The notes under the pieces: generated by a model | The model's input: only the letters and a program-made list of their open reading frames with translations | Database searches by the model: none | What the model was told of the DNA's origin: nothing | IMG/VR virus record: IMGVR_UViG_2778261571_000003 | DNA length: 11,656 nucleotides | Strand: one strand, 5' to 3' | From: a virus | Taxonomy: Duplodnaviria; Heunggongvirae; Uroviricota; Caudoviricetes | Program-made: the position numbers and the translations under genes | In this document: in pieces, positions 766 through 11,656 of the stretch | Layout of the letters: every line of letters begins with the position of its first letter | Numbering within the stretch: the stretch's first letter is position 1

Positions 766-980
766 TATTCACCTCTCGCAGCCTTGCGCTTATCTTCTTT
801 AATCTTGAAATAAAGGTTTGTCAGGTACGTCAGCAGGCCAAATACCAAGCTACCCAGCACACCTATTGCTGCCCACTGTGAGGGCGTGACTTTATCGAGC
901 AGCTGTAAAAACCAGTAGCCAGCACTGCCTGCGGAGGTGCCGTAGGCAATGCCCGTTGTTAACTTATCCATGGATTTCAT
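765..980 (-). CDS. S: Pinholin (phage-21 S-type class II holin), dual-start motif
   Basis: 71-aa [29 protein letters not shown]...[22 protein letters not shown] with two TM segments and a charged C-terminus. Met1 and Met4 (MKSMDK) fit the antiholin/holin dual-start arrangement known for S21. RBS GGAGGTGAGG upstream of ATG at 980. Confidence 0.9.
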
Positions 981-1069
981 AGCCTCACCTCCGCAAATAA
1001 CGGATGGTGTACACGGTTCGGAACGAAGAGGAAAGGTATAGAAGTTACATTAGCGTAAGGCTTGAACAT

Positions 1070-1106
1070 CTATTCAAAAAGAAAAACGCCGCGATTATTC
1101 TGGCGT
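1070..1106 (-). terminator. Possible intrinsic terminator after the AraC-family gene
   Basis: On the minus strand a short hairpin (ACGCC ... GGCGT, 5-bp stem at 1086-1090 / 1102-1106) is followed by a T-rich run (complement of the plus-strand A-run around 1075-1085). The stem is weak. Confidence 0.3.
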
Positions 1107-1167
1107 AGCTGAAAGCATCATACAATTATCAAATACGAAAATTACAAAATCATTAAAACGCATCACG

Positions 1168-1899
1168 TTACATCATGTCTTTTTCTAAAAAAAATCTTGA
1201 TGAATATTGATGGGGAGGAACACCAAAATACCTTCTGAAAACACTTACAAAATATGACGTGTTTTCATAACCGCATATCTCAGCAACTTTTCCAACAGAA
1301 TATAAATTGTAGCTTAATAACCTTTCCGCCATCACCATTCGCTCTTCAAGAATTAACTTACTAAATGATAAGCCTTCGTGCTTTAATTTTCTTTTTAACA
1401 GACTTTCACTCAGATACAGTCTTGAAGATATATCACAAAGTCTCCATGCTGCAGATATATCCGTGTGAATAATAGCCTTAACTTTACTTCCTAAACTATT
1501 AAGACATCCAAATAAAAAACTTTGCACTATTTTCTCTGAAGATAAGATAGCAAGACATGCAAGTGATATTTGATTTCTAACAAAATCCACAGTTCTGCCA
1601 TCACAATTCAAGCATGCAATCAAGTTCTTTAACAATGAAAAATCTTCACATTCCACCATCAAGTATGCCGGATAAAACCTTCTTACAGAAAAAGGTGAGA
1701 GTGTGTTGCTTTTAAAGAAATCATTAACTGTTTTCTCTTCAACATCTACGATCATTACATGATCTATATTTGATGAAAAAAAATCTTTTAAATTGTAATC
1801 AATGAGAACAGCACTTCCTTTTTTAAACAAAATATCTTCTTTACCAATTCGGACATCAAACGAGTTCAACACCAAAATGATAGAACATATGTATGGCAT
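1168..1899 (-). CDS. AraC-family transcriptional regulator (AppY/EnvY-like, AT-rich)
   Basis: C-terminal AraC-type HTH signature (..VGKVAEICGYENTSYFVSVFRRYFGVPPHQY..). Gene is visibly AT-rich compared with the phage backbone. The track ORF begins at GTG 1908; I prefer ATG 1899 (MPYICSI...) because AGGTGG sits 5-6 nt upstream. Stop TAA at 1170..1168. Confidence 0.85.
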   Translation of the reverse strand: MPYICSIILVLNSFDVRIGKEDILFKKGSAVLIDYNLKDFFSSNIDHVMIVDVEEKTVNDFFKSNTLSPFSVRRFYPAYLMVECEDFSLLKNLIACLNCDGRTVDFVRNQISLACLAILSSEKIVQSFLFGCLNSLGSKVKAIIHTDISAAWRLCDISSRLYLSESLLKRKLKHEGLSFSKLILEERMVMAERLLSYNLYSVGKVAEICGYENTSYFVSVFRRYFGVPPHQYSSRFFLEKDMM

Positions 1900-2250
1900 A
1901 TTATCCACCTGATATCATTGGGGTTACACCAGGTAAGTATAGGTGGAAAATCAATATTCGCCAGTTCAACAATAAGGAAAATTTCATTGCATCACAAGTA
2001 TAAAATTATGTATTTAACTCACAAAGACAAATTATTAAACCAATCCGTTATATTATATATAGCTGCGTGGAATCATAATATTATATATTTTGACTGGCAT
2101 GTTTACCAACTTTAAGTTGCATCTCAATTGTTTCTTCAGCGTAAACAGAGTTTTTATACAAACTGACACTCTGGGTATCATAGTGTAGTTTTTACGATTG
2201 TAAATATCCTGCATGCAGGAACTCATCCTTTTGGATGATATCGCATACAA

Positions 2251-3210
2251 TTAATTTACCATCAGTCTTAGAGCCAGTTCGTCCGGATAGGGATCGAAGT
2301 AATTCTGTGTAAGCAAGTAATCATTAGGATACTCACCCAGATAATGCTTCAGCAGAGTCAACGGCGCAAGAAGAGGTAATGTGCCAGAACGATAGTTAAG
2401 TATAACCTCGCTCAACTCTTTACGCTGGCGTGTACTTAAGTAGTTACTAAAATACCCCTGTATATGCATCAGCACATTCGTGTGATTTTTACGTGATGCA
2501 GGTTTTCTGAGAATCGCCATCAGCTTATCACGATACACCTCAAAGTATGATTCAAGGTCCGCCCACTCGTGTATTGCAGCCACAAATGGTCCCATATCTT
2601 TATAGCCTGCCTGACTATGCGCCAACAACTGAAGCTTATAACGACTATGAAAAGCTAATAACTCTCTTCTTGATAATTTCTCCTTGTAAAGGTGATTGAG
2701 CTCATGCAAAGCAAAAACTCTTTCAACAAAATTCTCACGAAGCACTGGATCATGTAATCGCCCATCCTCTTCAACCGGTAGCCAGGAAAACTTTTCCATC
2801 AAAGTGCTCGTAAATAGTCCCACTCCATCTTTACGACCTCGATTACCATTTTCATCATAGACACGCACGCGCTCCATGCCACAGCTGGGAGATTTAGCAC
2901 AAACCACAAACCCCGATACATCCTTTAATTTGTCCATATAAGAACGACTAAACTCTGTCATTCTCTCTGTCACATCCTCATTCTGGTCGTGGCTGAAACA
3001 CATCCGTATATTTCCTTGCGTCGAGCGCACAAGACGTAGAGCAGGACGCGGAACTGGCAGCCCTATAGCCATTTCCGGACATACTGGTCTGAATGTTACC
3101 CATTCCACTAATTTGTCCATTAAAAAGTCAGCTCTTTTGTGACCACCATCAAAACGAACAGCAGAACCGGCCAAACAACCGCTGATTCCAATCACAGGTT
3201 TTTTTATCAT
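2251..3210 (-). CDS. DUF523/DUF1722 two-domain protein (YbgA/TudS-like family)
   Basis: 319-aa ORF. N-terminal region (PVIGISGCLAGSAVRFDGG...VCPEMAIGLPVPR...) resembles the Cys-containing DUF523 core; the C-terminal half resembles DUF1722. RBS GGGGGAG before ATG at 3210. Family assignment is from memory, not a search. Confidence 0.7.
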   Translation of the reverse strand: MIKKPVIGISGCLAGSAVRFDGGHKRADFLMDKLVEWVTFRPVCPEMAIGLPVPRPALRLVRSTQGNIRMCFSHDQNEDVTERMTEFSRSYMDKLKDVSGFVVCAKSPSCGMERVRVYDENGNRGRKDGVGLFTSTLMEKFSWLPVEEDGRLHDPVLRENFVERVFALHELNHLYKEKLSRRELLAFHSRYKLQLLAHSQAGYKDMGPFVAAIHEWADLESYFEVYRDKLMAILRKPASRKNHTNVLMHIQGYFSNYLSTRQRKELSEVILNYRSGTLPLLAPLTLLKHYLGEYPNDYLLTQNYFDPYPDELALRLMVN

Positions 3211-3402
3211 ATTCTCCCCCTTGACTAATTCATTAACACATAAACTGTGTAGTGCACGGAATAAATTGCCTTTCTGGCGTCATCACTGACAATTTTTCTG
3301 TTATGGACTATTCCTAATATAGTATGAAAGTTCTTTAAGTGATCGGTCGTAATCATCTATCTTTCATACTTACTCTCAACTATCAAAAGTACAGGATTTA
3401 TT

Positions 3403-3927
3403 ATGAAGTTATGGCCTGTGTTGACTGGCATTGCACTCTCTTTCACTCTTATAGCATGTAAGGCCCCGACACCACCTAAAGGTGTGCAGCCGATTACAAA
3501 TTTTGACGCCAACCGCTACCTCGGAAAATGGTATGAAATAGCTCGCCTCGAGAACCGGTTCGAACGTGGTCTGGAACAGGTCAGCGCTACTTATGGAAAA
3601 CGGAACGACGGAGGGATTCGTGTACTTAACCGTGGATACGATCCAACGAAAAATAAATGGAGCGAGAGCGAAGGTAAAGCATACTTTACTGGAGATACTA
3701 AAACTGCAGCATTGAAGGTTTCGTTTTTTGGCCCCTTCTATGGTGGCTATAATGTAATCAAACTGGATGATGAGTATAAGTATGCTCTTGTCAGTGGTCC
3801 GAACAGAGAATACCTATGGATTCTGGCAAGGACCCCAACTATTCCAGATAAAGTAAAAGCAGACTATGTGCGAACCGCTCAAAAGTTGGGATTCAATGTC
3901 AATGAATTATTATGGGTTAAACAATAA
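3403..3927 (+). CDS. blc: Outer-membrane lipoprotein Blc (bacterial lipocalin) homologue
   Basis: 174-aa ORF with signal peptide and lipobox (..FTLIAC|KAPTPP). Lipocalin signature recalled from E. coli Blc: NFDANRYLGKWYEIARLENRFERG, GKAYFTG, LKVSFFGPFYGGYNVI, YLWILARTP. Only gene of the operon region on the plus strand; clearly diverged from the E. coli chromosomal Blc as I recall it. Confidence 0.88.
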   Translation: MKLWPVLTGIALSFTLIACKAPTPPKGVQPITNFDANRYLGKWYEIARLENRFERGLEQVSATYGKRNDGGIRVLNRGYDPTKNKWSESEGKAYFTGDTKTAALKVSFFGPFYGGYNVIKLDDEYKYALVSGPNREYLWILARTPTIPDKVKADYVRTAQKLGFNVNELLWVKQ

Positions 3928-5332: not shown

Positions 5333-5495
5333 GATTCCTCCTTGCTGCCAGTCGCAACCATTTTTTATCAACCAGGCTAGCGGTATATCCGAGCAGTGTT
5401 GGTATTTCGGATGGCTTCAGCTCAGGCTTACGCTTACGACGATTTGATACTCTGTAGATGTGTCCGTTCATGACACGAATAAGCGGTGTAGCCAT
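5325..5495 (-). CDS. ninE: NinE-like small protein (56 aa)
   Basis: Not in the ORF track. Hand translation from ATG 5495: [56 protein letters not shown], stop 5327..5325. ATG overlaps the ybcN stop (TAATG) with AGGAGG upstream. Order ybcN-ninE-ybcO-rusA matches DLP12. Confidence 0.65.
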   Translation of the reverse strand: MATPLIRVMNGHIYRVSNRRKRKPELKPSEIPTLLGYTASLVDKKWLRLAARRNHG

Positions 5496-5950
5496 TACGC
5501 CTCCTGCTTGTCGCGGAGCAGCTGGAACTCGCAGCTCTGCGGAATAGTCAGGTGGCAGCCAATATTCATCGCCCAGGCTTCAACCTTACACAGGAAGACA
5601 TACATCTCTCCGGTATCAAGATTGGAGGTATGACGTAATGACTGAATGGTGGTGATTTCACCGGTTACGACATCAACCAGTTCTTTGGTTTCATAACCGA
5701 GATAAGTGTGTTTGAGAGCATCTTTTACCCAAGCTGGAGTGGCGAACGTTTTACCCCTGCTGATGAGGTATTCACTGATTTCGCTGTACCACATGTGGCT
5801 GAGTGCATTCTGGGAAAGACTGCGTCTCTCGCGCCACGGTTTAAGCACCATGCGAAAGCATTTGCCGTCCTCCAGATAAGGCTGGATCTGCCGACCGATA
5901 GCGGTGAAGTTACCGCGATGCAATTTGATACCATCTTGTGGGAGGTTCAC
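5495..5950 (-). CDS. ybcN: YbcN-like protein (NinB-related; DLP12 YbcN family)
   Basis: 151-aa [24 protein letters not shown]...[18 protein letters not shown]... The RSLSQN..W motif resembles lambda NinB (RSLDQNRKLW) and the whole matches recalled DLP12 YbcN. GTG start at 5950 with GGAGG 6 nt upstream. Confidence 0.75.
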
Positions 5951-6156: not shown

Positions 6157-6357
6157 TCAAGCGTTTCCTTCATACCAAAGCCTATAAAGTTTTTCTTCTT
6201 CGTTTGGGTTAATAGGCTCACCATGTTTTAATTTTTCAGTGTACAAAATTGTTGAACAAATCGCGGAAGTTAATCCAGTGATCGCCATCTGCCGCAGATC
6301 GGATTTTTGTGTCCCCCTCAACAGACGATCTCCCATCCATGTAATAATTGTATCCAT
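6157..6357 (-). CDS. Hypothetical small protein (66 aa), no recognised family
   Basis: ORF MDTIITWMGDRLLRGTQKSDLRQMAITGLTSAICSTILYTEKLKHGEPINPNEEEKLYRLWYEGNA with only a weak SD (AAGGG, ~9 nt spacing). Co-oriented with the operon and downstream of the ORF-free stretch. Coding status uncertain. Confidence 0.35.
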   Translation of the reverse strand: MDTIITWMGDRLLRGTQKSDLRQMAITGLTSAICSTILYTEKLKHGEPINPNEEEKLYRLWYEGNA

Positions 6358-6940
6358 GCTTCAGCCCTTCTTAGTAAATAGTGTGTAGGGCGACTGAAGG
6401 ACCGAGTTTATGCTTTTTCGCATTGCTTTCAGTTAGTAGACCGGTATAGCACCGGAAACAATCCTACGGCAAATTGGTTGTCTGACCTCTCGGTTTTTCG
6501 TGCATTAACCGATACCCACTACAGTCTCGGCGAAAGCTGCACACCCCCAAGGTGTACTGGTAGCACTCGGCACAGCCTAGCGCGCCACTTTCTCCTCACT
6601 ATCCAGTCTAATTTTATCCCCTAGTCAGACACTCAGATGTAGTGCTCAGCAGCGGCATGCGGGGGAATACAAAAACTCGGACAAAATTGGGCCCTCCTTT
6701 TTGAATCACTCGCGGGGATGTAGTTATTAATACATGGGAAAAGATCTGTTTTCAAATCCAACATTATATGGTTTCAATACCACGGGGTGGCTATGTGTTT
6801 CTCATTATTATTTACAATCTACTGTAATCGCTCCGAACGCAAATGCGTCAATACTCGAATCAACTGATCATCCTGCCACGACTGAAATCTCAAATAGGCC
6901 GTTTCTCAAGTAAGAGATTTTGAATGCATTATTGGCTACT

Positions 6941-6986: not shown

Positions 6987-7481
6987 TCATTTCCAATTGC
7001 AAGACTGTGAAATTTTTTCCACAACCTTATCAATCTCAGACAAGTCAAACTCAACTACTTGCATAGTTGATCCATAAGGTTCAAACCCAAAAATAGCTTT
7101 TTTATGCTTAGCCAAGGTCTTTATAAATTGTATTGGTTGTGGAGCAAATGCAGAATCACCGCCTTCCCCACCTCCCCAAACACTCTTGACCGGCTTTCCG
7201 CCATCTAACCGCACTGTAATTCTTGGGTTGTCCGAACCCATATAATCATTGAATGATAAATAGGCATCTGTTTTGTTATCACTACAACGCAACACCAGTG
7301 AAGTTGCACGATCAGTACCTGCTTTGTTATATGAATCTGGTGATAAATTAAGAGCCACAAAGTCAGTCTGGTCAGTCATTTTATTTATCTCAGACTTTGT
7401 TATCCACGGCCCTAACTTCTCTACACCAGCATTTGCTGTAAACGAGGCACTTATAACAAAGGCTAAAATAAATTTTCTCAT
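6987..7481 (-). CDS. Secreted/periplasmic protein of unknown function (cargo gene)
   Basis: 164-aa ORF with a classical signal peptide (MRKFILAFVISASFTANA|GVEK...). Strong RBS AAGGAG 8 nt before ATG 7481. AT-rich relative to neighbours. No family recognised; no counterpart at this position in lambda. Confidence 0.7.
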   Translation of the reverse strand: MRKFILAFVISASFTANAGVEKLGPWITKSEINKMTDQTDFVALNLSPDSYNKAGTDRATSLVLRCSDNKTDAYLSFNDYMGSDNPRITVRLDGGKPVKSVWGGGEGGDSAFAPQPIQFIKTLAKHKKAIFGFEPYGSTMQVVEFDLSEIDKVVEKISQSCNWK

Positions 7482-7627
7482 AACCCTATCTCCTTGGATT
7501 CAAAGAACTAAATATTATCAAGTCTCTTGCCACTAGAAAACCCACTTTATTTCCAAACTCTGATGGCATTCCTGAAAATCCGCTTCATACTCACTTGCCC
7601 CGCCCTATCATCCTGAGTAGCTAACCG

Positions 7628-7801
7628 TTAAACAAACGTTCGCCAGACCTTACCATCAATGACCAGGATTCCTGCCCGCGTCATTTTTGCCGCAGCCTTA
7701 TTTATGCTGGTTAATGTCACACCTGTTGTCGCAGCAACGTCCGGCGCACAGAAGCTCTTGTGCGTCTCCAGATAATGAATAATTGCCTCTTTGCCCGTCA
7801 T
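7628..7801 (-). CDS. ren: Ren-like protein, truncated (57 aa; lambda Ren is longer)
   Basis: Not in the ORF track. Hand translation from ATG 7801: MTGKEAIIHYLETHKSFCAPDVAATTGVTLTSINKAAAKMTRAGILVIDGKVWRTFV*, which matches the recalled N-terminal half of lambda Ren up to ..KVWRT and then stops (TAA 7630..7628). ATG overlaps the P stop (ATGA). Confidence 0.6.
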   Translation of the reverse strand: MTGKEAIIHYLETHKSFCAPDVAATTGVTLTSINKAAAKMTRAGILVIDGKVWRTFV

Positions 7802-8499
7802 ACAGTTGCTCCTTTCAGTCCGAACTTCGCTTTGATTTCTGCGATCTTCGCCAGAGCCTGAGCCCGGTTAAGTGGTCTACCGCCCATGACAGGAAGTTGT
7901 TTTACTGGTTCAGGTATAGCCTCACCACGGTTAATTCGTGCGGTCATACAGGACAGTTCATCGGCAGCCTTGCGCCGTAATTCCGCGTCAGTCAACGCAT
8001 TGGCCCGCATGTTCTGATACAGGTTGGTAACCAGCCAGTAGTGCGCGTTTGATTTCCACGGATAAGACTCTGCATCCGGATACAGCCCGCGCTTCCGGCA
8101 ATACTCGTAAACCATATCAACCAGCTCGCTGGCGTTTGGCAGCCCGGCGGTAACGGATGCTTCTTCCCGGCACCAGGCGACAAACTGCCCGGGTGATGGC
8201 AGGAATGGTCGATTCTGCCGACGGGCTACGCGCATTCCAGCGTTAACCTGTTCCATTGTGGTGATCCCGTTTTCCCGGAAAGCCAGAACCCACTGGCGGC
8301 GAATTTCGTTCAGTTCGTTCTGGTCACGGTTAGCCAGGCTCGCAGGGAAAGTTGCCAGCAACTGGCTGAATACACCGTTGATGATCTGCGCTACCTGCTG
8401 TACCTGCGGCTTTTCGTCGTACTGTTCCGGCATGTTGTTGGCGATCCGGCGCATCTGCTCACGGTCAAAGTTAATCATCTGTGCGGCGATGTTTTTCAT
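7798..8499 (-). CDS. P: Replication protein P (lambda P-type DnaB helicase loader)
   Basis: From ATG 8499: MKNIAAQMINFDREQMRRIANNMPEQYDEKPQVQQVAQIINGVFSQLLATFPASLANRDQNE...GLKGATV (233 aa), almost residue-for-residue lambda P as recalled. ATG overlaps the O stop (ATGA at 8499..8496). The track ORF start at 8604 is an upstream in-frame extension inside O. Confidence 0.95.
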   Translation of the reverse strand: MKNIAAQMINFDREQMRRIANNMPEQYDEKPQVQQVAQIINGVFSQLLATFPASLANRDQNELNEIRRQWVLAFRENGITTMEQVNAGMRVARRQNRPFLPSPGQFVAWCREEASVTAGLPNASELVDMVYEYCRKRGLYPDAESYPWKSNAHYWLVTNLYQNMRANALTDAELRRKAADELSCMTARINRGEAIPEPVKQLPVMGGRPLNRAQALAKIAEIKAKFGLKGATV

Positions 8500-9425
8500 A
8501 GATCCACCCCGTAAATCCAGTCTGTGTTTGTCAGGTCGAGTTTTGGTTTGCCGGCTGTCACGCCAGCCTGTTGCTTGTTTCGGTTGATTTCGAGCTGGGT
8601 CCACTTGTCGCGGAGTTTGGCCGGACTCAGCACGTTACCGGACCAGAAGTTGTCCTGGCATGCCCAGCGGAACAGTACACACATGTCGCGGTGGTTACGT
8701 CCGTCACGTTCACGCATCAGGCGGATATCGTTAGCCCACCCTGCAAAATTCGGTTTTCTGGCTGATGGCGCGATGGTCTTCACCATGTCAAACATCCACT
8801 CTGCGGCGGTCAGGTCTTCTGCTGTCCCCCACTTGCTGCCGCTCTGAATTGCAGCATCCGGTTTCACCACAGGAAGGGCATTTTCTGGCTGGTCAGAGGA
8901 TTCGCCATAATTCTCGGACGAAAAAGGTTTTATATTGTCTTTTGTTAGTTTGTCTTTTGTGTTTACCTGATTCGGGTAAATGCCTTTACCTGATTTGGGT
9001 AAGCTTTTCTTACCTGATTCAGGTAAATTTACCTCTTTCAGGTAAACTTTATTTTTCTTACCCGATTCGGGTAATGTTGACCATTCACTGACCACATTAT
9101 TGATGCCGATATTCCGCCCGCTCTGAATAAGAATTCCACGCTTTACCAGAACACTTTTTGCAGCAGAACACTTGTGCGGCAATATCCCGGTCAATTCGGA
9201 AAGTTGCTCGTTGCTCACCCAATCCAGTCTTTTATTAAAGCCATATGTTTTGCGCATGACAGCCAGGAAGACCAGAAGCTGGTGCTGTGTTAATCCGGCC
9301 AGCATCACAGCTTCCAGCAACTCATTTGCAATGCGCGTATAACCATCGTCGAGATCTGCCACGCGCCGCTCCTTTTGTGCCACATCCGGCACTGGAAAAT
9401 TGAATATCTCAGCAGTGTTTGCCAT
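8496..9425 (-). CDS. O: Replication initiator O (lambda O family) with embedded origin
   Basis: From ATG 9425 (RBS GGGAGGA 4 nt upstream): MANTAEIFNFPVPDVAQKERRVADLDDGYTRIANELLEA..., ending ..LDLTNTDWIYGVDL like lambda O. The central linker (..LPESGKKNKVYLKEVNLPESGKKSLPKSGKG..) is encoded by the iteron repeats. The track start at 9515 is an upstream extension. Confidence 0.9.
   Translation of the reverse strand: MANTAEIFNFPVPDVAQKERRVADLDDGYTRIANELLEAVMLAGLTQHQLLVFLAVMRKTYGFNKRLDWVSNEQLSELTGILPHKCSAAKSVLVKRGILIQSGRNIGINNVVSEWSTLPESGKKNKVYLKEVNLPESGKKSLPKSGKGIYPNQVNTKDKLTKDNIKPFSSENYGESSDQPENALPVVKPDAAIQSGSKWGTAEDLTAAEWMFDMVKTIAPSARKPNFAGWANDIRLMRERDGRNHRDMCVLFRWACQDNFWSGNVLSPAKLRDKWTQLEINRNKQQAGVTAGKPKLDLTNTDWIYGVDL
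8921..8962. other. AT-rich segment flanking the iterons (candidate DNA-unwinding element of the origin)
   Basis: AAAAAGGTTTTATATTGTCTTTTGTTAGTTTGTCTTTTGTGT lies immediately on the O-downstream side of the iterons and contains a tandem direct repeat TTGTCTTTTGT (8935-8945 and 8950-8960). Iterons followed by an AT-rich stretch is the ori-lambda architecture. Confidence 0.5.
8963..9074. repeat. Origin iterons: five 17-bp dyad-symmetric repeats inside O
   Basis: TTACCTGATTCGGGTAA (8963-8979), TTACCTGATTTGGGTAA (8986-9002), TTACCTGATTCAGGTAA (9010-9026), TTACCTCTTTCAGGTAA (9029-9045), TTACCCGATTCGGGTAA (9058-9074). Each is a near-palindrome TTACC..GGTAA, spaced 19-29 bp apart, in the middle of O as in ori-lambda. 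Confidence 0.8.
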
Positions 9426-9511
9426 AATTCCTCCCGCAATGAGTGCGTTACGATTTGCACCTGAAAGTCGGCTCTGTTCCCGCAGACCGGCTTTCGCCAT
9501 TTCCGAACCTG

Positions 9512-10051
9512 TCATATTGCCCCCAGCATGGTGGTGACCATCGCCATCAGTGGACCAGCCAAATCCGGGTCCACACGAAACATCGACACAATGCCTTCAC
9601 TCATCTCCTTCAGTTTCTGGTGGCGTGGTGCGTTGAGAATGACAGCCTGTTTTGCCTCACTGAGTTCCTTTTCCATTTCAGCCAGCCGAGCCATGAAGCT
9701 ATCCTGCTCAACCAGGTGGCCGCGATATTCCAGCGGTAGTACCGCCAGAATTGCCGGGGTCAATTCACGCACGTTATTTCGGTATTTTTCAGAATCGAAT
9801 TTGTTATCGAGGAAGCGGAACAGCTTCTGGCGTGCACGGCTGACATCATCAGGGAAATCGATGGTGCCGCCGCCCTGCTCCCGATACTCATTCACAATGA
9901 GTGCGGCAACGACATCCTGATTATCTACAGCCGACCAGGCGCGGACGGCATCACGGATTTTTTCGTGGCCTGGAGCTTGTTTTGTTTGAGAACGATTTAT
10001 CACCGCAGTCGGGCTAAATCCGCTAGTCTGTTGGTATGTAAGTGGTTGCAT
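9512..10051 (-). CDS. YdaT-family protein (CII-position regulator; annotated 'toxin YdaT' in Rac-like prophages)
   Basis: 179-aa ORF in the cII position between the Cro-like gene and O. Motifs IVNEYREQGGG and ELTPAILAVLPLEYRGHL resemble those I recall from Rac YdaT. RBS AAGGAG 7 nt before ATG 10051. Confidence 0.65.
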   Translation of the reverse strand: MQPLTYQQTSGFSPTAVINRSQTKQAPGHEKIRDAVRAWSAVDNQDVVAALIVNEYREQGGGTIDFPDDVSRARQKLFRFLDNKFDSEKYRNNVRELTPAILAVLPLEYRGHLVEQDSFMARLAEMEKELSEAKQAVILNAPRHQKLKEMSEGIVSMFRVDPDLAGPLMAMVTTMLGAI

Positions 10052-10120: not shown

Positions 10121-10351
10121 TTAAGCTGCGTTCTTTTCAGTGTGTGGAAACAACTTCGGAAGATCCGGGCGAATCTGGTATGCCTTCACTACTCCACCAG
10201 TAGCCGTAACAATGCTGCCGACATGTTCAGGGGATACCTTTGCTTTGTTGTGAAGCCACTTATAGACGGCCTGCTGTGAAACTTCGCAGGCAGCGCCTAG
10301 TTTCTTTTGTGAACCAACGATATTGATCGCTGTTTTGATGGCTGGGTTCAT
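10121..10351 (-). CDS. Cro-like HTH regulator (YdaS family)
   Basis: 76-aa ORF divergent from the repressor gene. HTH-like segment (..GSQKKLGAACEVSQQAVYKWLHNK..) and overall similarity to Rac YdaS as recalled. RBS GGAGG before ATG 10351; stop TAA 10123..10121. Confidence 0.75.
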   Translation of the reverse strand: MNPAIKTAINIVGSQKKLGAACEVSQQAVYKWLHNKAKVSPEHVGSIVTATGGVVKAYQIRPDLPKLFPHTEKNAA

Positions 10352-10455
10352 AACAACCTCCGTGGTTAATTTGAATCAAGATTAAAACTATGGTTGTTTT
10401 TAGTCAACAACCATTTTCGTTTGATGAAATAAAACCTTGGTTGTACATTTGGACT
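10352..10455. promoter_or_regulatory. Divergent operator/promoter region between the Cro-like and cI genes
   Basis: Perfect 9-bp inverted repeat ATGGTTGTT-7bp-AACAACCAT at 10390-10414. Half-site GGTTGT/ACAACC recurs at 10353-10358, 10392-10397, 10407-10412 and 10439-10444. Candidate rightward promoter on the minus strand: -35 TTGACT (10402-10407) overlapping the palindrome, 17-bp spacer, -10 TAATCT (10379-10384). Candidate cI promoter: TTGATG (10421-10426), 17-bp spacer, TACATT (10444-10449), ending 6 nt before the cI ATG with no SD, suggesting a leaderless mRNA. Confidence 0.5.
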
Positions 10456-11145
10456 ATGAAAACAACACTCTCAGAAAGACTTAAAGAAGCCAGATTAGCG
10501 CGAGGCCTTACACAAAAGGCGCTTGGGGATTTGGTCGGGGTTAGCCAAGCAGCTATTCAGAAAATCGAAACAGGGAAAGCTAACCAAACAACTAAAATCG
10601 TGGAGATCGCGAACGCTTTGGGTGTGCGCGCAGAATGGTTATCTTCTGGCGTTGGAAATATGTCAGACAGTACAGTGCAACCAATACAAACAACTGTCAG
10701 CCATTCCAAATACTTTAAGATTGACGTTCTTGATATCGAAGTGAGTGCCGGGCCGGGAGTCATCAACCGTGAGTTTGTAGAAGTTCTACGTTCGGTTGAG
10801 TATTCGTTTGACGATGCTCGTCACATGTTCGATGGCAGGAAGGCGGAAAATATCCGTATCATTAACGTACGCGGTGACAGCATGTCAGGAACGATCGAAC
10901 CAGGTGATCTGCTGTTCGTTGATATCACTGTTAAATCTTTCGACGGTGATGGTATCTATGCGTTTCTGTACGACGACACAGCCCATGTAAAGCGCCTGCA
11001 AATGATGAAGGATAAACTGCTGGTTATCTCTGATAACAAGAGCTACTCACCGTGGGACCCAATCGAGAAAGACGAGATGAACCGGGTATTCATCTTCGGG
11101 AAAGTCATCGGGAGCATGCCGCAGACGTATAGGAAGCATGGATAA
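10456..11145 (+). CDS. cI: CI-type prophage repressor (XRE-family HTH + LexA-like S24 peptidase domain)
   Basis: From ATG 10456: MKTTLSERLKEARLARGLTQKALGDLVGVSQAAIQKIETGK.. (HTH), with a C-terminal autocleavage domain carrying the Ser/Lys dyad context (..VRGDSMSGTIEPGDLLFVD.. and ..AHVKRLQ..). Divergent from the Cro-like gene. The track start at 10390 is an extension that would begin inside the operator palindrome. Confidence 0.9.
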   Translation: MKTTLSERLKEARLARGLTQKALGDLVGVSQAAIQKIETGKANQTTKIVEIANALGVRAEWLSSGVGNMSDSTVQPIQTTVSHSKYFKIDVLDIEVSAGPGVINREFVEVLRSVEYSFDDARHMFDGRKAENIRIINVRGDSMSGTIEPGDLLFVDITVKSFDGDGIYAFLYDDTAHVKRLQMMKDKLLVISDNKSYSPWDPIEKDEMNRVFIFGKVIGSMPQTYRKHG

Positions 11146-11240: not shown

Positions 11241-11494
11241 ATGGAAGAACGTGGGAATTACCTAATAGCCCCCCTAGAAGTAATTGGTTCTGGCGGTTTT
11301 GGCCTTGTAGAAAAAATAAGGTTATATAACTCACAAAGAAAAATTTGTGGTCTATATGCCAGAAAAATTTTACGACCTGATGCAACAGATCCTGAACTCT
11401 TTACCAGATTTGAACGAGAAGTAAGATATCAAACTGAATGCCTGCATACTAATATTGTCCAAATATTCATATGCCACTTACAGAATGCTCAGCC
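11241..11494 (+). pseudogene. Hanks-type protein kinase gene, N-terminal ~84 codons only, interrupted by IS10
   Basis: MEERGNYLIAPLEVIGSGGFGLVEKIRLYNSQRKICGLYARKILRPDATDPELFTRFEREVRYQ... shows the glycine-rich loop G-S-G-G-F-G-L-V, a beta3 lysine (YARK) and an alphaC glutamate (FEREV). The ORF ends at a stop supplied by the first bases of IS10 (cTGAtg at 11496-11498). RBS AAAAGGA before ATG 11241. Confidence 0.7.
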
Positions 11495-11656
11495 CTGATG
11501 AATCCCCTAATGATTTTGGTAAAAATCATTAAGTTAAGGTGGATACACATCTTGTCATATGATCAAATGGTTTCGCGAAAAATCAATAATCAGACAACAA
11601 GATGTGCGAACTCGATATTTTACACGACTCTCTTTACCAATTCTGCCCCGAATTAC
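11495..11656 (+). mobile_element. IS10 (Tn10-type IS4-family element), outside end; continues beyond window end
   Basis: From 11495 the sequence CTGATGAATCCCCTAATGATTTTGGTAAAAATCATTAAGTTAAGGTGGATACACATCTTGTCATATGATCAAATGG... matches the IS10 outside end as I recall it, including the terminal repeat, the IHF-site region and the Dam GATC (11561-11564) in the transposase promoter region. The 9 bp just outside (TGCTCAGCC, 11486-11494) fit the IS10 target consensus NGCTNAGCN. Confidence 0.85.
11602..11656 (+). CDS. IS10 transposase, first 18 codons (continues beyond window)
   Basis: ATG at 11602 followed by MCELDILHDSLYQFCPEL, the recalled N-terminus of IS10/Tn10 transposase. Confidence 0.8.
   Translation, partial: MCELDILHDSLYQFCPEL

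Follow-up and report, generated by a model that had tools for sequence, protein, structure and literature searches.

A probable relocated moron encoding a predicted periplasmic VasI-type protein behind a truncated ren gene in a lambda-like prophage

Introduction

What follows the replication gene P in the prophage sequence IMGVR_UViG_2778261571_000003 (IMG/VR; 11,656 nucleotides, called the window below), why is the adjoining ren gene cut short, and what might the gene behind it do for its carrier? The window is the part of a DLP12/lambda-like Escherichia coli prophage that holds immunity, replication, nin and lysis genes. Its early-right operon runs on the minus strand, and P is the last conserved early gene ahead of a variable region. 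The element in question is a gene of 164 codons within this region, between a shortened ren and the nin-type genes. An earlier note, made from the letters of the sequence alone, had taken it for a moron encoding a secreted protein without recognizable homologue, inserted in place of the 3' end of ren. Morons are the means by which temperate phages pay their hosts; for most moron products no function has been assigned.

The overall reading proposed here, to which we give a probability of about 0.5, is that the gene is a relocated single-gene moron whose periplasmic VasI-type product protects the lysogen at its envelope. The PM4 chromosome is 100% identical to the window over the 1.6 kb queried, and the isolated phage IdasGreatGrand encodes an identical 164-aa protein and 57-aa ren product and has a replication region very close to that of the window, so the arrangement is compatible with a working phage.

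Results

The gene is carried on a single-gene unit of about 600 bp (approximately 7545 to 6943, minus strand), the cassette, which comprises a predicted extended −10 promoter, a Shine-Dalgarno sequence, the 164-codon gene and an intrinsic terminator (Table 1). Its open reading frame (ORF) has a GC content of 39.0%, compared with 54.4% in P, 48.9% in ren and 50.2% in the downstream gene ybcN. Promoter, gene, terminator and deviant base composition make up the classical anatomy of a moron (PMC3594210). The earlier note had rightly described the gene as AT rich and as equipped with its own ribosome-binding site and its own terminator; it had also placed it immediately downstream of ren, and the two ORFs are in fact separated by 146 nt.

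Transcription is predicted to start near position 7505. When 19 upstream regions are aligned, identity per column averages 51%, and no column is invariant except those of T, A and T in the −10 hexamer, with the guanine of the TG, two bases upstream of the hexamer, at least 90% conserved. The extended −10 motif (TGnTAnnAT) lies at a fixed distance of 30 to 33 nt from the start codon in all 19. The same alignment revealed homology in the 60 nt upstream of the gene, which blastn saw as unique. In relatives, the weak −35 element overlaps the U-tract of a complete upstream terminator hairpin, and since the window keeps half of this hairpin (GTGGGTTTT), the left junction of the cassette falls at about 7540 to 7548.

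The terminator downstream of the gene has a folding energy of −12.2 kcal/mol (z score of −2.2). A hairpin with a U-tract follows the gene in all seven relatives that were folded, and since it is kept with differing stem sequences (AACCCAGC, AACCCUCC, AACCUCGC and AACCCGC), its conservation is compensatory, and the gene has a predicted terminator of its own. DNA homology (76 to 78%) to the nearest copies outside E. coli, which occupy a tail-gene slot described below, extends from 7489/7495 to 6943, that is, exactly over the Shine-Dalgarno sequence, the ORF and the hairpin.

Comparison with the DLP12-type locus L003 delimits the exchanged segment. Homology runs from P into ren down to 7557 and resumes at 6907, which places the downstream junction there. 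Between these points L003 carries emrE, ylcJ, ybcK and most of a gene for a P22-antirepressor C-terminal-domain protein (annotated at L003 4506-4829), and the window carries approximately 650 bp. Beyond the junction, window positions 6168-6907 are 94% identical to L003 3852-4594 by blastn. The insertion took away only the last ~10 codons of ren and the region of the lambda tR2-type terminator.

Two features near the cassette are recorded in their own right. The 630 bp between it and a 66-aa ORF (6157-6357, minus strand) contain no convincing gene, only the remnant of the P22-antirepressor C-terminal-domain gene, and the 66-aa ORF derives from a 118-aa gene of L003 by loss of 124 bp (PHROG 12412/8527). 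Klebsiella-type copies of the gene carry a perfect palindrome, GGATGCATCC, which ends 3 to 4 nt before the start codon (L005 5988-5997, and at the same place in L008, L017, L101 and L104) and is missing from the window copy; it may serve as an operator, or fold so as to mask the ribosome-binding site.

Of 5,426 complete E. coli genomes, 84 (~1.5%) have the cassette, nearly always beside ren; 3,503 genomes match the surrounding 1.6 kb in some part, chiefly in P and ren. It is absent at the corresponding place in lambda and in L003, L018 and L108 to L110, and thus constitutes extra DNA relative to these. A core lambdoid gene, a possibility that the earlier note had named as fatal to its proposal, was rejected on the same figure of 1.5%. 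Within IMG/VR, P, the 57-codon ren and the gene stand at fixed spacing in 40 of 40 loci with at least 98% amino acid identity, and ybcN lies downstream in each of the 36 that are long enough to reach that far. Across 41 sequences, a haplotype block from ~7700 to 6990 is nearly invariant, and diversity rises on either side of it, with several alleles of the ren 5' part.

More distant copies occupy a different place. In 40 of 43 loci at 54 to 81% identity (the other three being truncated or ambiguous), the major tail protein is followed by a DUF6246 gene, and the gene stands downstream of the latter and upstream of a tape-measure gene. The same position, after DUF6246 and upstream of the tape measure, was found in 20 of 20 loci from nine protein clusters (Klebsiella, Pantoea, Serratia, Salmonella and others), and the PHROG of the gene downstream of the tail-slot copies is that of the tape measure. 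Cargo of the Arc, antirepressor, KilA-N and YafO types is also frequent in this slot. Relatives at 25 to 28% identity occur in P2-like, Pasteurella and Brucella temperate phages. A scan of genome contigs gave only three loci.

The distribution supports horizontal acquisition of a cargo gene between P/ren and the nin-type genes, and moron anatomy together with relocation is very likely. The gene would normally reside in siphovirus prophages of Klebsiella, Serratia, Pantoea, Salmonella and their relatives, in the slot just upstream of the tape-measure gene. One copy would have moved, once, into a cargo hotspot behind P/ren of DLP12/lambda-like E. coli phages, where it took the place of the last part of ren and of what in lambda is the terminator region behind that gene. 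Its later spread would have been as a fixed haplotype, in which ren has a dead, diverged 3' remnant. A single relocation is suggested by the ren stop and remnant that the 41 sequences share, as well as by the near absence of diversity between ~7700 and 6990. The proposal of a moron between P/ren and the nin-type region is therefore borne out by its sporadic occurrence, by the relatives in the tail slot, and by the conserved promoter-like element and terminator.

Orientation and promoter bear on a different explanation, in which the gene is no lysogen-expressed moron but an ordinary lytic-cycle gene whose transcription depends entirely on read-through, from pR here and from the late promoter in the copies of the tail slot. 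Its product would condition the envelope or stop progeny from re-adsorbing to lysed cells. Phage T5 has such a protein, Llp, which prevents its progeny from re-adsorbing to lysed cells. The gene is indeed in the sense orientation within the early-right operon here and within the late operon in relatives, its −35 element is weak, and its product has structural look-alikes in the virulent T4-like phages RB16 and KP15. Read-through alone, however, does not account for a −10 element that is conserved where the surrounding non-coding DNA is not, nor for terminators upstream (in relatives) and downstream that isolate the gene as a unit of its own; the gene is also absent from most related phages, which implies that it is not needed for growth. 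A purely lytic-cycle role is accordingly improbable.

The ren ORF that precedes the cassette retains the helix-turn-helix-like N-terminal domain of Ren. It matches PHROG 7054 over 57 of 57 positions (5.5e-42) and positions 11 to 65 of the 116 in PHROG 142, Ren-like exclusion protein (2.4e-19). Intact ren genes of 93 to 100 aa exist in relatives, so the 57-codon form is not the full length of the gene, and the ORF of ~93 to 100 aa that would be expected after P is precluded by the stop that takes the place of codon 58, by a 1-nt deletion and by the loss of the last ~10 codons. Codons 1 to 55 are 85 to 94% identical at the nucleotide level to intact ren alleles. Beyond codon 55 the identity is 62 to 65%, with one gap, while the intact alleles stay 93 to 96% alike to each other. 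The drop is abrupt and coincides with a fully conserved 18-nt block, GGTAAGGTCTGGCGAACG.

The earlier note had let Ren similarity end at about residue 55. The discontinuity at this point is sharp, as it claimed, but DNA alignment to ren of lambda (96 aa), of the DLP12-type L003 (100 aa) and of L018 (93 aa), the kind of check that it had suggested, follows homology onward to ~7540, which corresponds approximately to lambda codon 87 of 96. The alignment score of this remnant is 29, against −24 ± 5 for shuffled sequences (~10 standard deviations above), and its conceptual translation, RLATQDDRAGQVSMKRIF, differs from RFATREEREGKMSTNLVF by conservative replacements. On these two grounds the remnant looks like the 3' part of a distant ren orthologue, joined at the block GGTAAGGTCTGGCGAACG, that died later. 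A search for an intact protein with the repaired C terminus of the remnant gave no candidate donor. PGAP likewise annotates 7533-7801 as a ren pseudogene ("frameshifted; internal stop"). The truncation itself is a stop codon inside the diverged remnant, and the view that cargo replaced the 3' end of ren holds for the last ~10 codons only. Compared with lambda, codons 1 to 55 are conserved and the cassette occupies the place of the tR2 hairpin between ren and ninB, whereas the ren of the window survives as a pseudogene, or as a stub of 57 aa, whose 3' part is diverged and dead.

Truncation and cargo might even be unrelated, with ren decaying by chance in place and the insertion a coincidence. 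Ren is dispensable in lambda, DLP12 of strain K-12 presumably has a ren pseudogene as well, and the stop codon was not made by the insertion itself, since it is found ~90 nt upstream of the junction. Chance decay is hard to reconcile with the linkage between the two, since the same ren stop was present in 41 of 41 E. coli-type cassette-bearing sequences checked, in one haplotype block with the remnant, and the remnant occurs at 95% identity or more in ~82 complete E. coli genomes, close to the 84 with the cassette. The abrupt, crossover-like fall in identity at a conserved block is, moreover, unlike gradual decay, and an unrelated cargo with a NACHT-domain gene joins ren at the same point. Coincidence is therefore very unlikely.

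That second junction belongs to a broader pattern. In lambda, ren is followed by the tR2 hairpin and ninB without cargo, and at other loci it is followed by emrE-ybcK (L003), an HD-domain gene and DUF4041 (L018), Lar and DUF7301 (L108), ead/Ea22-like genes (L110), or a 563-aa NACHT-domain gene (L109, E. coli 720632, 913-3172). At L109, compared with window 7628-7660, homology to ren breaks off directly behind KVWRT, which is the point of discontinuity in the window, and no remnant is left; PGAP labels this ren "missing C-terminus". The shared endpoint suggests that the block acts as a recurrent crossover point; GGTAAGGTCTGGCGAACG may thus be a recurrent crossover site that bounds a hotspot for cargo and defence genes. 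We suspect that the NACHT, HD and DUF4041 genes of this hotspot are defence genes.

The 164-aa protein begins with MRKFILAFVISASFTANA, followed by GV, and thus has a positively charged n-region, an 11-residue hydrophobic core and an A-x-A site, without a lipobox. Codons 1 to 19 (7481-7425) have the features of a Sec signal peptide of the signal peptidase I type, which leaves a mature protein of ~145 aa. The earlier note had recognized this signal peptide, and its n-h-c pattern with A-x-A is retained in 24 of 24 relatives though the sequence varies. In an AlphaFold2 (AF2) model (mean pLDDT of 79, pTM of 0.76), residues 1 to 17 have low pLDDT and the remainder forms a folded domain with no further membrane segment. 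A Sec signal alone would direct the protein to the periplasm, so "periplasmic" replaces the earlier term "secreted", and this location is quite likely. Cys66 and Cys161 are invariant among the 24 relatives and probably form a disulfide in the periplasm. Three other assignments were rejected or disfavoured: a lipoprotein, by the missing lipobox cysteine; a spurious ORF, by a dN/dS of ~0.1 and the large family; and a virion or tail-assembly protein, suggested by the adjoining tape-measure gene, by the conserved signal peptide and the flanking terminators. Relative to the nearest tail-slot copies dN/dS is 0.09 to 0.12, which indicates strong purifying selection.

The earlier note had recognized no homologue, and a large family is in fact available. 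Residues 56 to 163 match Pfam VasI (PF11319, formerly DUF3121) with 26.7 bits against a gathering score of 26.5, and the protein matches PHROG 1848 end to end (2.7e-70). An exhaustive profile search recovered 3,817 cluster representatives at an E value of 1e-3 or lower, and those sampled carry PF11319. Residues 19 to 164 align by hhalign with residues 61 to 208 of ~210-aa VasI-like proteins (probability of 100%, E value of 3.5e-47). The alignment takes in the RC..NKT and C-terminal C.WK motifs, which makes Cys66 and Cys161 common to the long VasI-like forms. An N-terminal C...RLxC[FY]D module, found in the ~200- to 217-aa VasI-like proteins (P0038-P0072), is absent here, and the mature protein begins at the beta domain. 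The phage form matches the C-terminal domain of VasI/TagO-type proteins in its entirety and lacks the Cys-motif module that these have at the N terminus. An N-terminal hydrophobic or transmembrane segment precedes the domain in 133 of the 150 best superfamily matches, and the VasI domain is accordingly predicted to be extracytoplasmic across the family.

Other architectures were noted within the superfamily. In examples such as P0064, P0066, P0070, P0103 and P0123, the VasI domain lies behind a cytoplasmic zinc ribbon and a membrane segment, in an anti-sigma-like layout, or lies behind DUF2939, or is fused to cytochrome c motifs.

Fold comparison adds kinship of a looser kind. Of the structure prediction and fold search that the earlier note had proposed, the former gave an AF2 model with a beta-rich domain, and Foldseek against the PDB returned no significant match. 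A sequence-profile search of the PDB likewise gave nothing below an E value of 1, and BFVD only uncharacterised phage proteins. The domain resembles IalB of Bartonella (PDB 3dtd) and the MotY chain of the Vibrio LPHT ring (8z5n_A), both envelope or periplasmic proteins, at the level of fold only, with 9 to 11% sequence identity, and one VasI-like relative of ~217 aa has a weak Pfam IalB match. The BFVD look-alikes D9IC73 (RB16) and D5JF58 (KP15) come from virulent T4-like phages (Foldseek E values of 1e-3 to 6e-3, TM of ~0.5), which means that the fold is not confined to temperate phages.

PGAP names the protein "T6SS-associated protein TagO", in which T6SS denotes the type VI secretion system. 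Against the VasI equivalog model TIGR03360 the protein scores 14.4 bits, with a cut-off of 124.2, and only profile positions 84 to 187, the C-terminal half, align; ten VasI-like forms of ~200 aa score 26 to 59 bits, none reaching 124. No T6SS gene adjoins the gene in the window, in L001 or in the 20 loci for which gene and Pfam tables were available, where all neighbours are phage genes. Nor was one seen in 83 loci from IMG/VR and genomes, which were matched only to P, ren, ybcN, tape-measure and DUF6246 genes and not searched for T6SS genes. The PGAP label is thus best regarded as a transfer at the level of the domain and carries no evidence of T6SS function.

The characterized family member is VCA0118 (VasI) of Vibrio cholerae, which is exported, dispensable for secretion of Hcp and VgrG-1, and needed for full killing of amoebae and E. 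coli by a mechanism that is not established (PMC3166118). A review of 2026 lists TagO/VasI without known function (PMC13584744), and searches of the literature with the protein accession and with DUF3121 returned nothing beyond the 2011 study of V. cholerae. The phage protein and VasI/TagO are homologous over the whole mature phage protein, including the RC..NKT and C.WK motifs and the cysteine pair, and both are exported. The phage protein differs in lacking the N-terminal module, in its score and in its residence in phage modules.

With this homology in hand, the protein might be a genuine TagO/VasI accessory delivered by a prophage to tune the T6SS of the host, for example by raising the efficiency of killing as VCA0118 does. 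The Pfam and hhalign matches and the PGAP name speak for such a function, as does the phenotype of VCA0118, which is exported and contributes to killing without being needed for Hcp secretion (PMC3166118). What makes this explanation quite improbable is the low TIGR03360 score confined to one half of the profile, the missing module, and a setting among phage neighbours in the ~20 loci with tables (the remaining loci being matched to phage markers only), together with the occurrence of the gene family in phages of several genera regardless of the T6SS content of the host. TagO itself, moreover, is listed without known function (PMC13584744).

A related explanation turns the T6SS link around, with the protein as a periplasmic decoy or immunity-like factor against bacterial attack by T6SS effectors, colicins or other envelope-crossing toxins. 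Its size and periplasmic location and its probably disulfide-bonded, beta-rich nature, as predicted from sequence and model, would suit such a role; the family is linked to T6SS loci (PMC3166118), and another moron product, Cor, also guards against colicin M (PMC3594210). On the other side, no effector gene is adjacent at the loci with gene tables, nor does VasI lie beside effectors in V. cholerae and Vibrio fluvialis, where it is one of the T6SS core genes. There is thus only a small chance that the protein serves in this way.

The features of the window are compiled in Table 1. Some lie outside the subject of ren and the cassette. For the 179-aa protein in the cII position, Pfam gives YdaT_toxin (7.2e-30) and PHROG gives "CII-like transcriptional activator" (4.9e-67), which are conflicting functional names for one family. 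An Rfam scan found no RNA family within the region of the cassette and ren. At 11540-11609 (minus strand) it gave a full-length match to RNA-OUT, the IS10 antisense RNA (98.8 bits, E value of 3.7e-20), just past an 85-codon ORF (11241-11498) with a GSGGFGLV protein-kinase-like N terminus, which suggests an IS10-type element inserted beside the immunity region. A second cargo block, partly AT rich, extends from 1168 to 3927 between the antiterminator gene Q and the lysis genes, in the position of stx/nmpC in other lambdoid prophages.

Table 1. Coordinates of the cassette, of ren and of the neighbouring genes in the window
Feature	Position	Strand	Remarks
cI-like repressor	10390-11145	+	Pfam/PHROG/PGAP annotation
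cro-like gene	10121-10351		Pfam/PHROG/PGAP annotation
YdaT/CII-like gene	9512-10051	-	cII position
O	8496-9515		Pfam/PHROG/PGAP annotation
P	7798-8499	-	Pfam Phage_lambda_P, 1.2e-61; PGAP 702-nt CDS, L001 9399-10100
ren 5' part, 57-codon ORF	7628-7801	-	Ends ...KVWRTFV-TAA, with TAA at 7630-7628, where the earlier note had placed the stop
ren 3' remnant, diverged, dead	7540-7627	-	Follows in-frame TAA; 1-nt deletion; last ~10 codons absent
Half of upstream terminator hairpin	7545-7537	-	GTGGGTTTT
−35-like element	7540-7535	-	TTTTCT
TG of extended −10 (predicted)	7520-7519	-	
−10 hexamer (predicted)	7517-7512	-	TAATAT
Shine-Dalgarno sequence	7495-7490	-	AAGGAG, 8 nt before ATG
164-codon ORF	7481-6987	-	VasI/DUF3121-family protein
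Intrinsic terminator	6970-6943	-	9-bp GC-rich stem, 4-nt loop, U-tract; hairpin and T-run 6970-6949
Remnant of 3' end of P22-antirepressor C-terminal-domain gene	6819-6907	-	blastn against L003
ybcN (NinB-like)	5495-5950		
ninE, ybcO, rusA, Q			Farther downstream of ybcN
Lipocalin-family gene	3403-3927	+	Second cargo block
YbgA-family gene	2251-3210	-	Second cargo block
AraC-type regulator	1168-1908	-	Second cargo block
Lysis genes			Near low-coordinate end of window

Discussion

The cassette invites comparison with gp15 of phage HK97, a moron product reportedly treated by Juhala et al. in 2000 and by Cumby et al. in 2012. Both are single-gene units of deviant base composition with their own promoter (predicted here) and terminator. 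The order in HK97 is the G-T chaperone, gp15, a terminator and, a few bases later, the start of the tape-measure gene, and the close relatives of the cassette stand in this very slot, after the tail-chaperone position and with a terminator a few bases before the tape measure. The two differ in that gp15 is a 62-aa inner-membrane protein of the YebO family, whereas the cassette encodes a soluble periplasmic, beta-rich domain of ~145 aa when mature (predicted), and in that the window cassette lies in the early region and not in the tail region. Gene 15 of HK97 was the first moron described; its product resides in the envelope and blocks entry of phage DNA, and exclusion depends on the tail region of the excluded phage (PMC3594210).

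Anatomy, mobility between the two slots, purifying selection, family kinship and the signals for targeting beyond the cytoplasm are taken as shown; the further course of events envisaged for the cassette can be ordered by confidence. Transcription in the lysogen from the gene's own extended −10 promoter is the step held most firmly, although predicted from sequence. Ranked with it is additional read-through from pR, which would occur during lytic growth, since the cassette replaces the terminator region that follows ren in lambda. The protein would then be exported by Sec, cleaved after Ala19 and folded in the periplasm into an IalB-like, beta-rich domain; that it acts alone in the cell envelope comes second in confidence. 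Lowest stands the step by which the lysogen would be protected at the envelope, for example through a block in the periplasm to the entry of superinfecting phage DNA, as with gp15. Exclusion of DNA entry is favoured among possible activities by the relatives in the gp15 slot, the envelope-bound and tail-dependent action of gp15 and the suspected defence genes in the ren hotspot; even so, an exclusion-type function is tentative and, on balance, doubtful. The earlier note had named lysogenic conversion and superinfection exclusion as candidate roles, and both stay conjectural.

Several observations weigh against the reading of a relocated, envelope-protecting moron. The argument from the slot is guilt by association, the 164-aa protein has no sequence similarity to gp15, and PADLOC defence models gave no match for it. 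Genetics exist for a single family member, VCA0118, whose part is in T6SS-dependent killing and not in phage exclusion (PMC3166118), and IalB and MotY offer no known biochemical mechanism that could be transferred. As for anatomy, the −35 element is poor (3 of 6 positions), a generic promoter scan missed the extended −10 site, and the terminator scan alone performed at chance (2 found against 1.7 expected), so that such scans would not by themselves establish a moron.

A bolder proposal, which we consider unlikely, is that the short phage VasI-like proteins (PHROG 1848) form a new class of periplasmic factors acting on envelope-crossing injection machines. Their targets may be the incoming tail/tape-measure complex of superinfecting phages or the needles of T6SSs, and the T6SS cousins VasI/TagO may do the mirror-image job for the cell's own needle.

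The kinds to which the finding belongs are already catalogued, as morons and as DUF3121/VasI-family proteins (PHROG 1848, PGAP "TagO"). The name "T6SS-associated protein TagO" nonetheless misleads, since the gene is not part of a T6SS locus wherever its neighbours were listed, and it does so both in prophage annotation and in T6SS surveys. The junction after ren codon 55, which adjoins at least two different cargos, is a useful marker for cargo and defence genes in lambdoid prophages. The cassette itself is a clean minimal case, with one partnerless gene under strong purifying selection that occupies two classic cargo slots and is available in a culturable phage, IdasGreatGrand. Were its product to act in exclusion or in protection of the envelope, the known membrane and lipoprotein types of such factors would be joined by a soluble periplasmic one, and DUF3121 would gain its first function. 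If the proposal of a class acting on injection machines is true, this single-gene cassette would give the first mechanistic handle on the VasI/TagO/IalB-like fold, whose function has been open since 2011.

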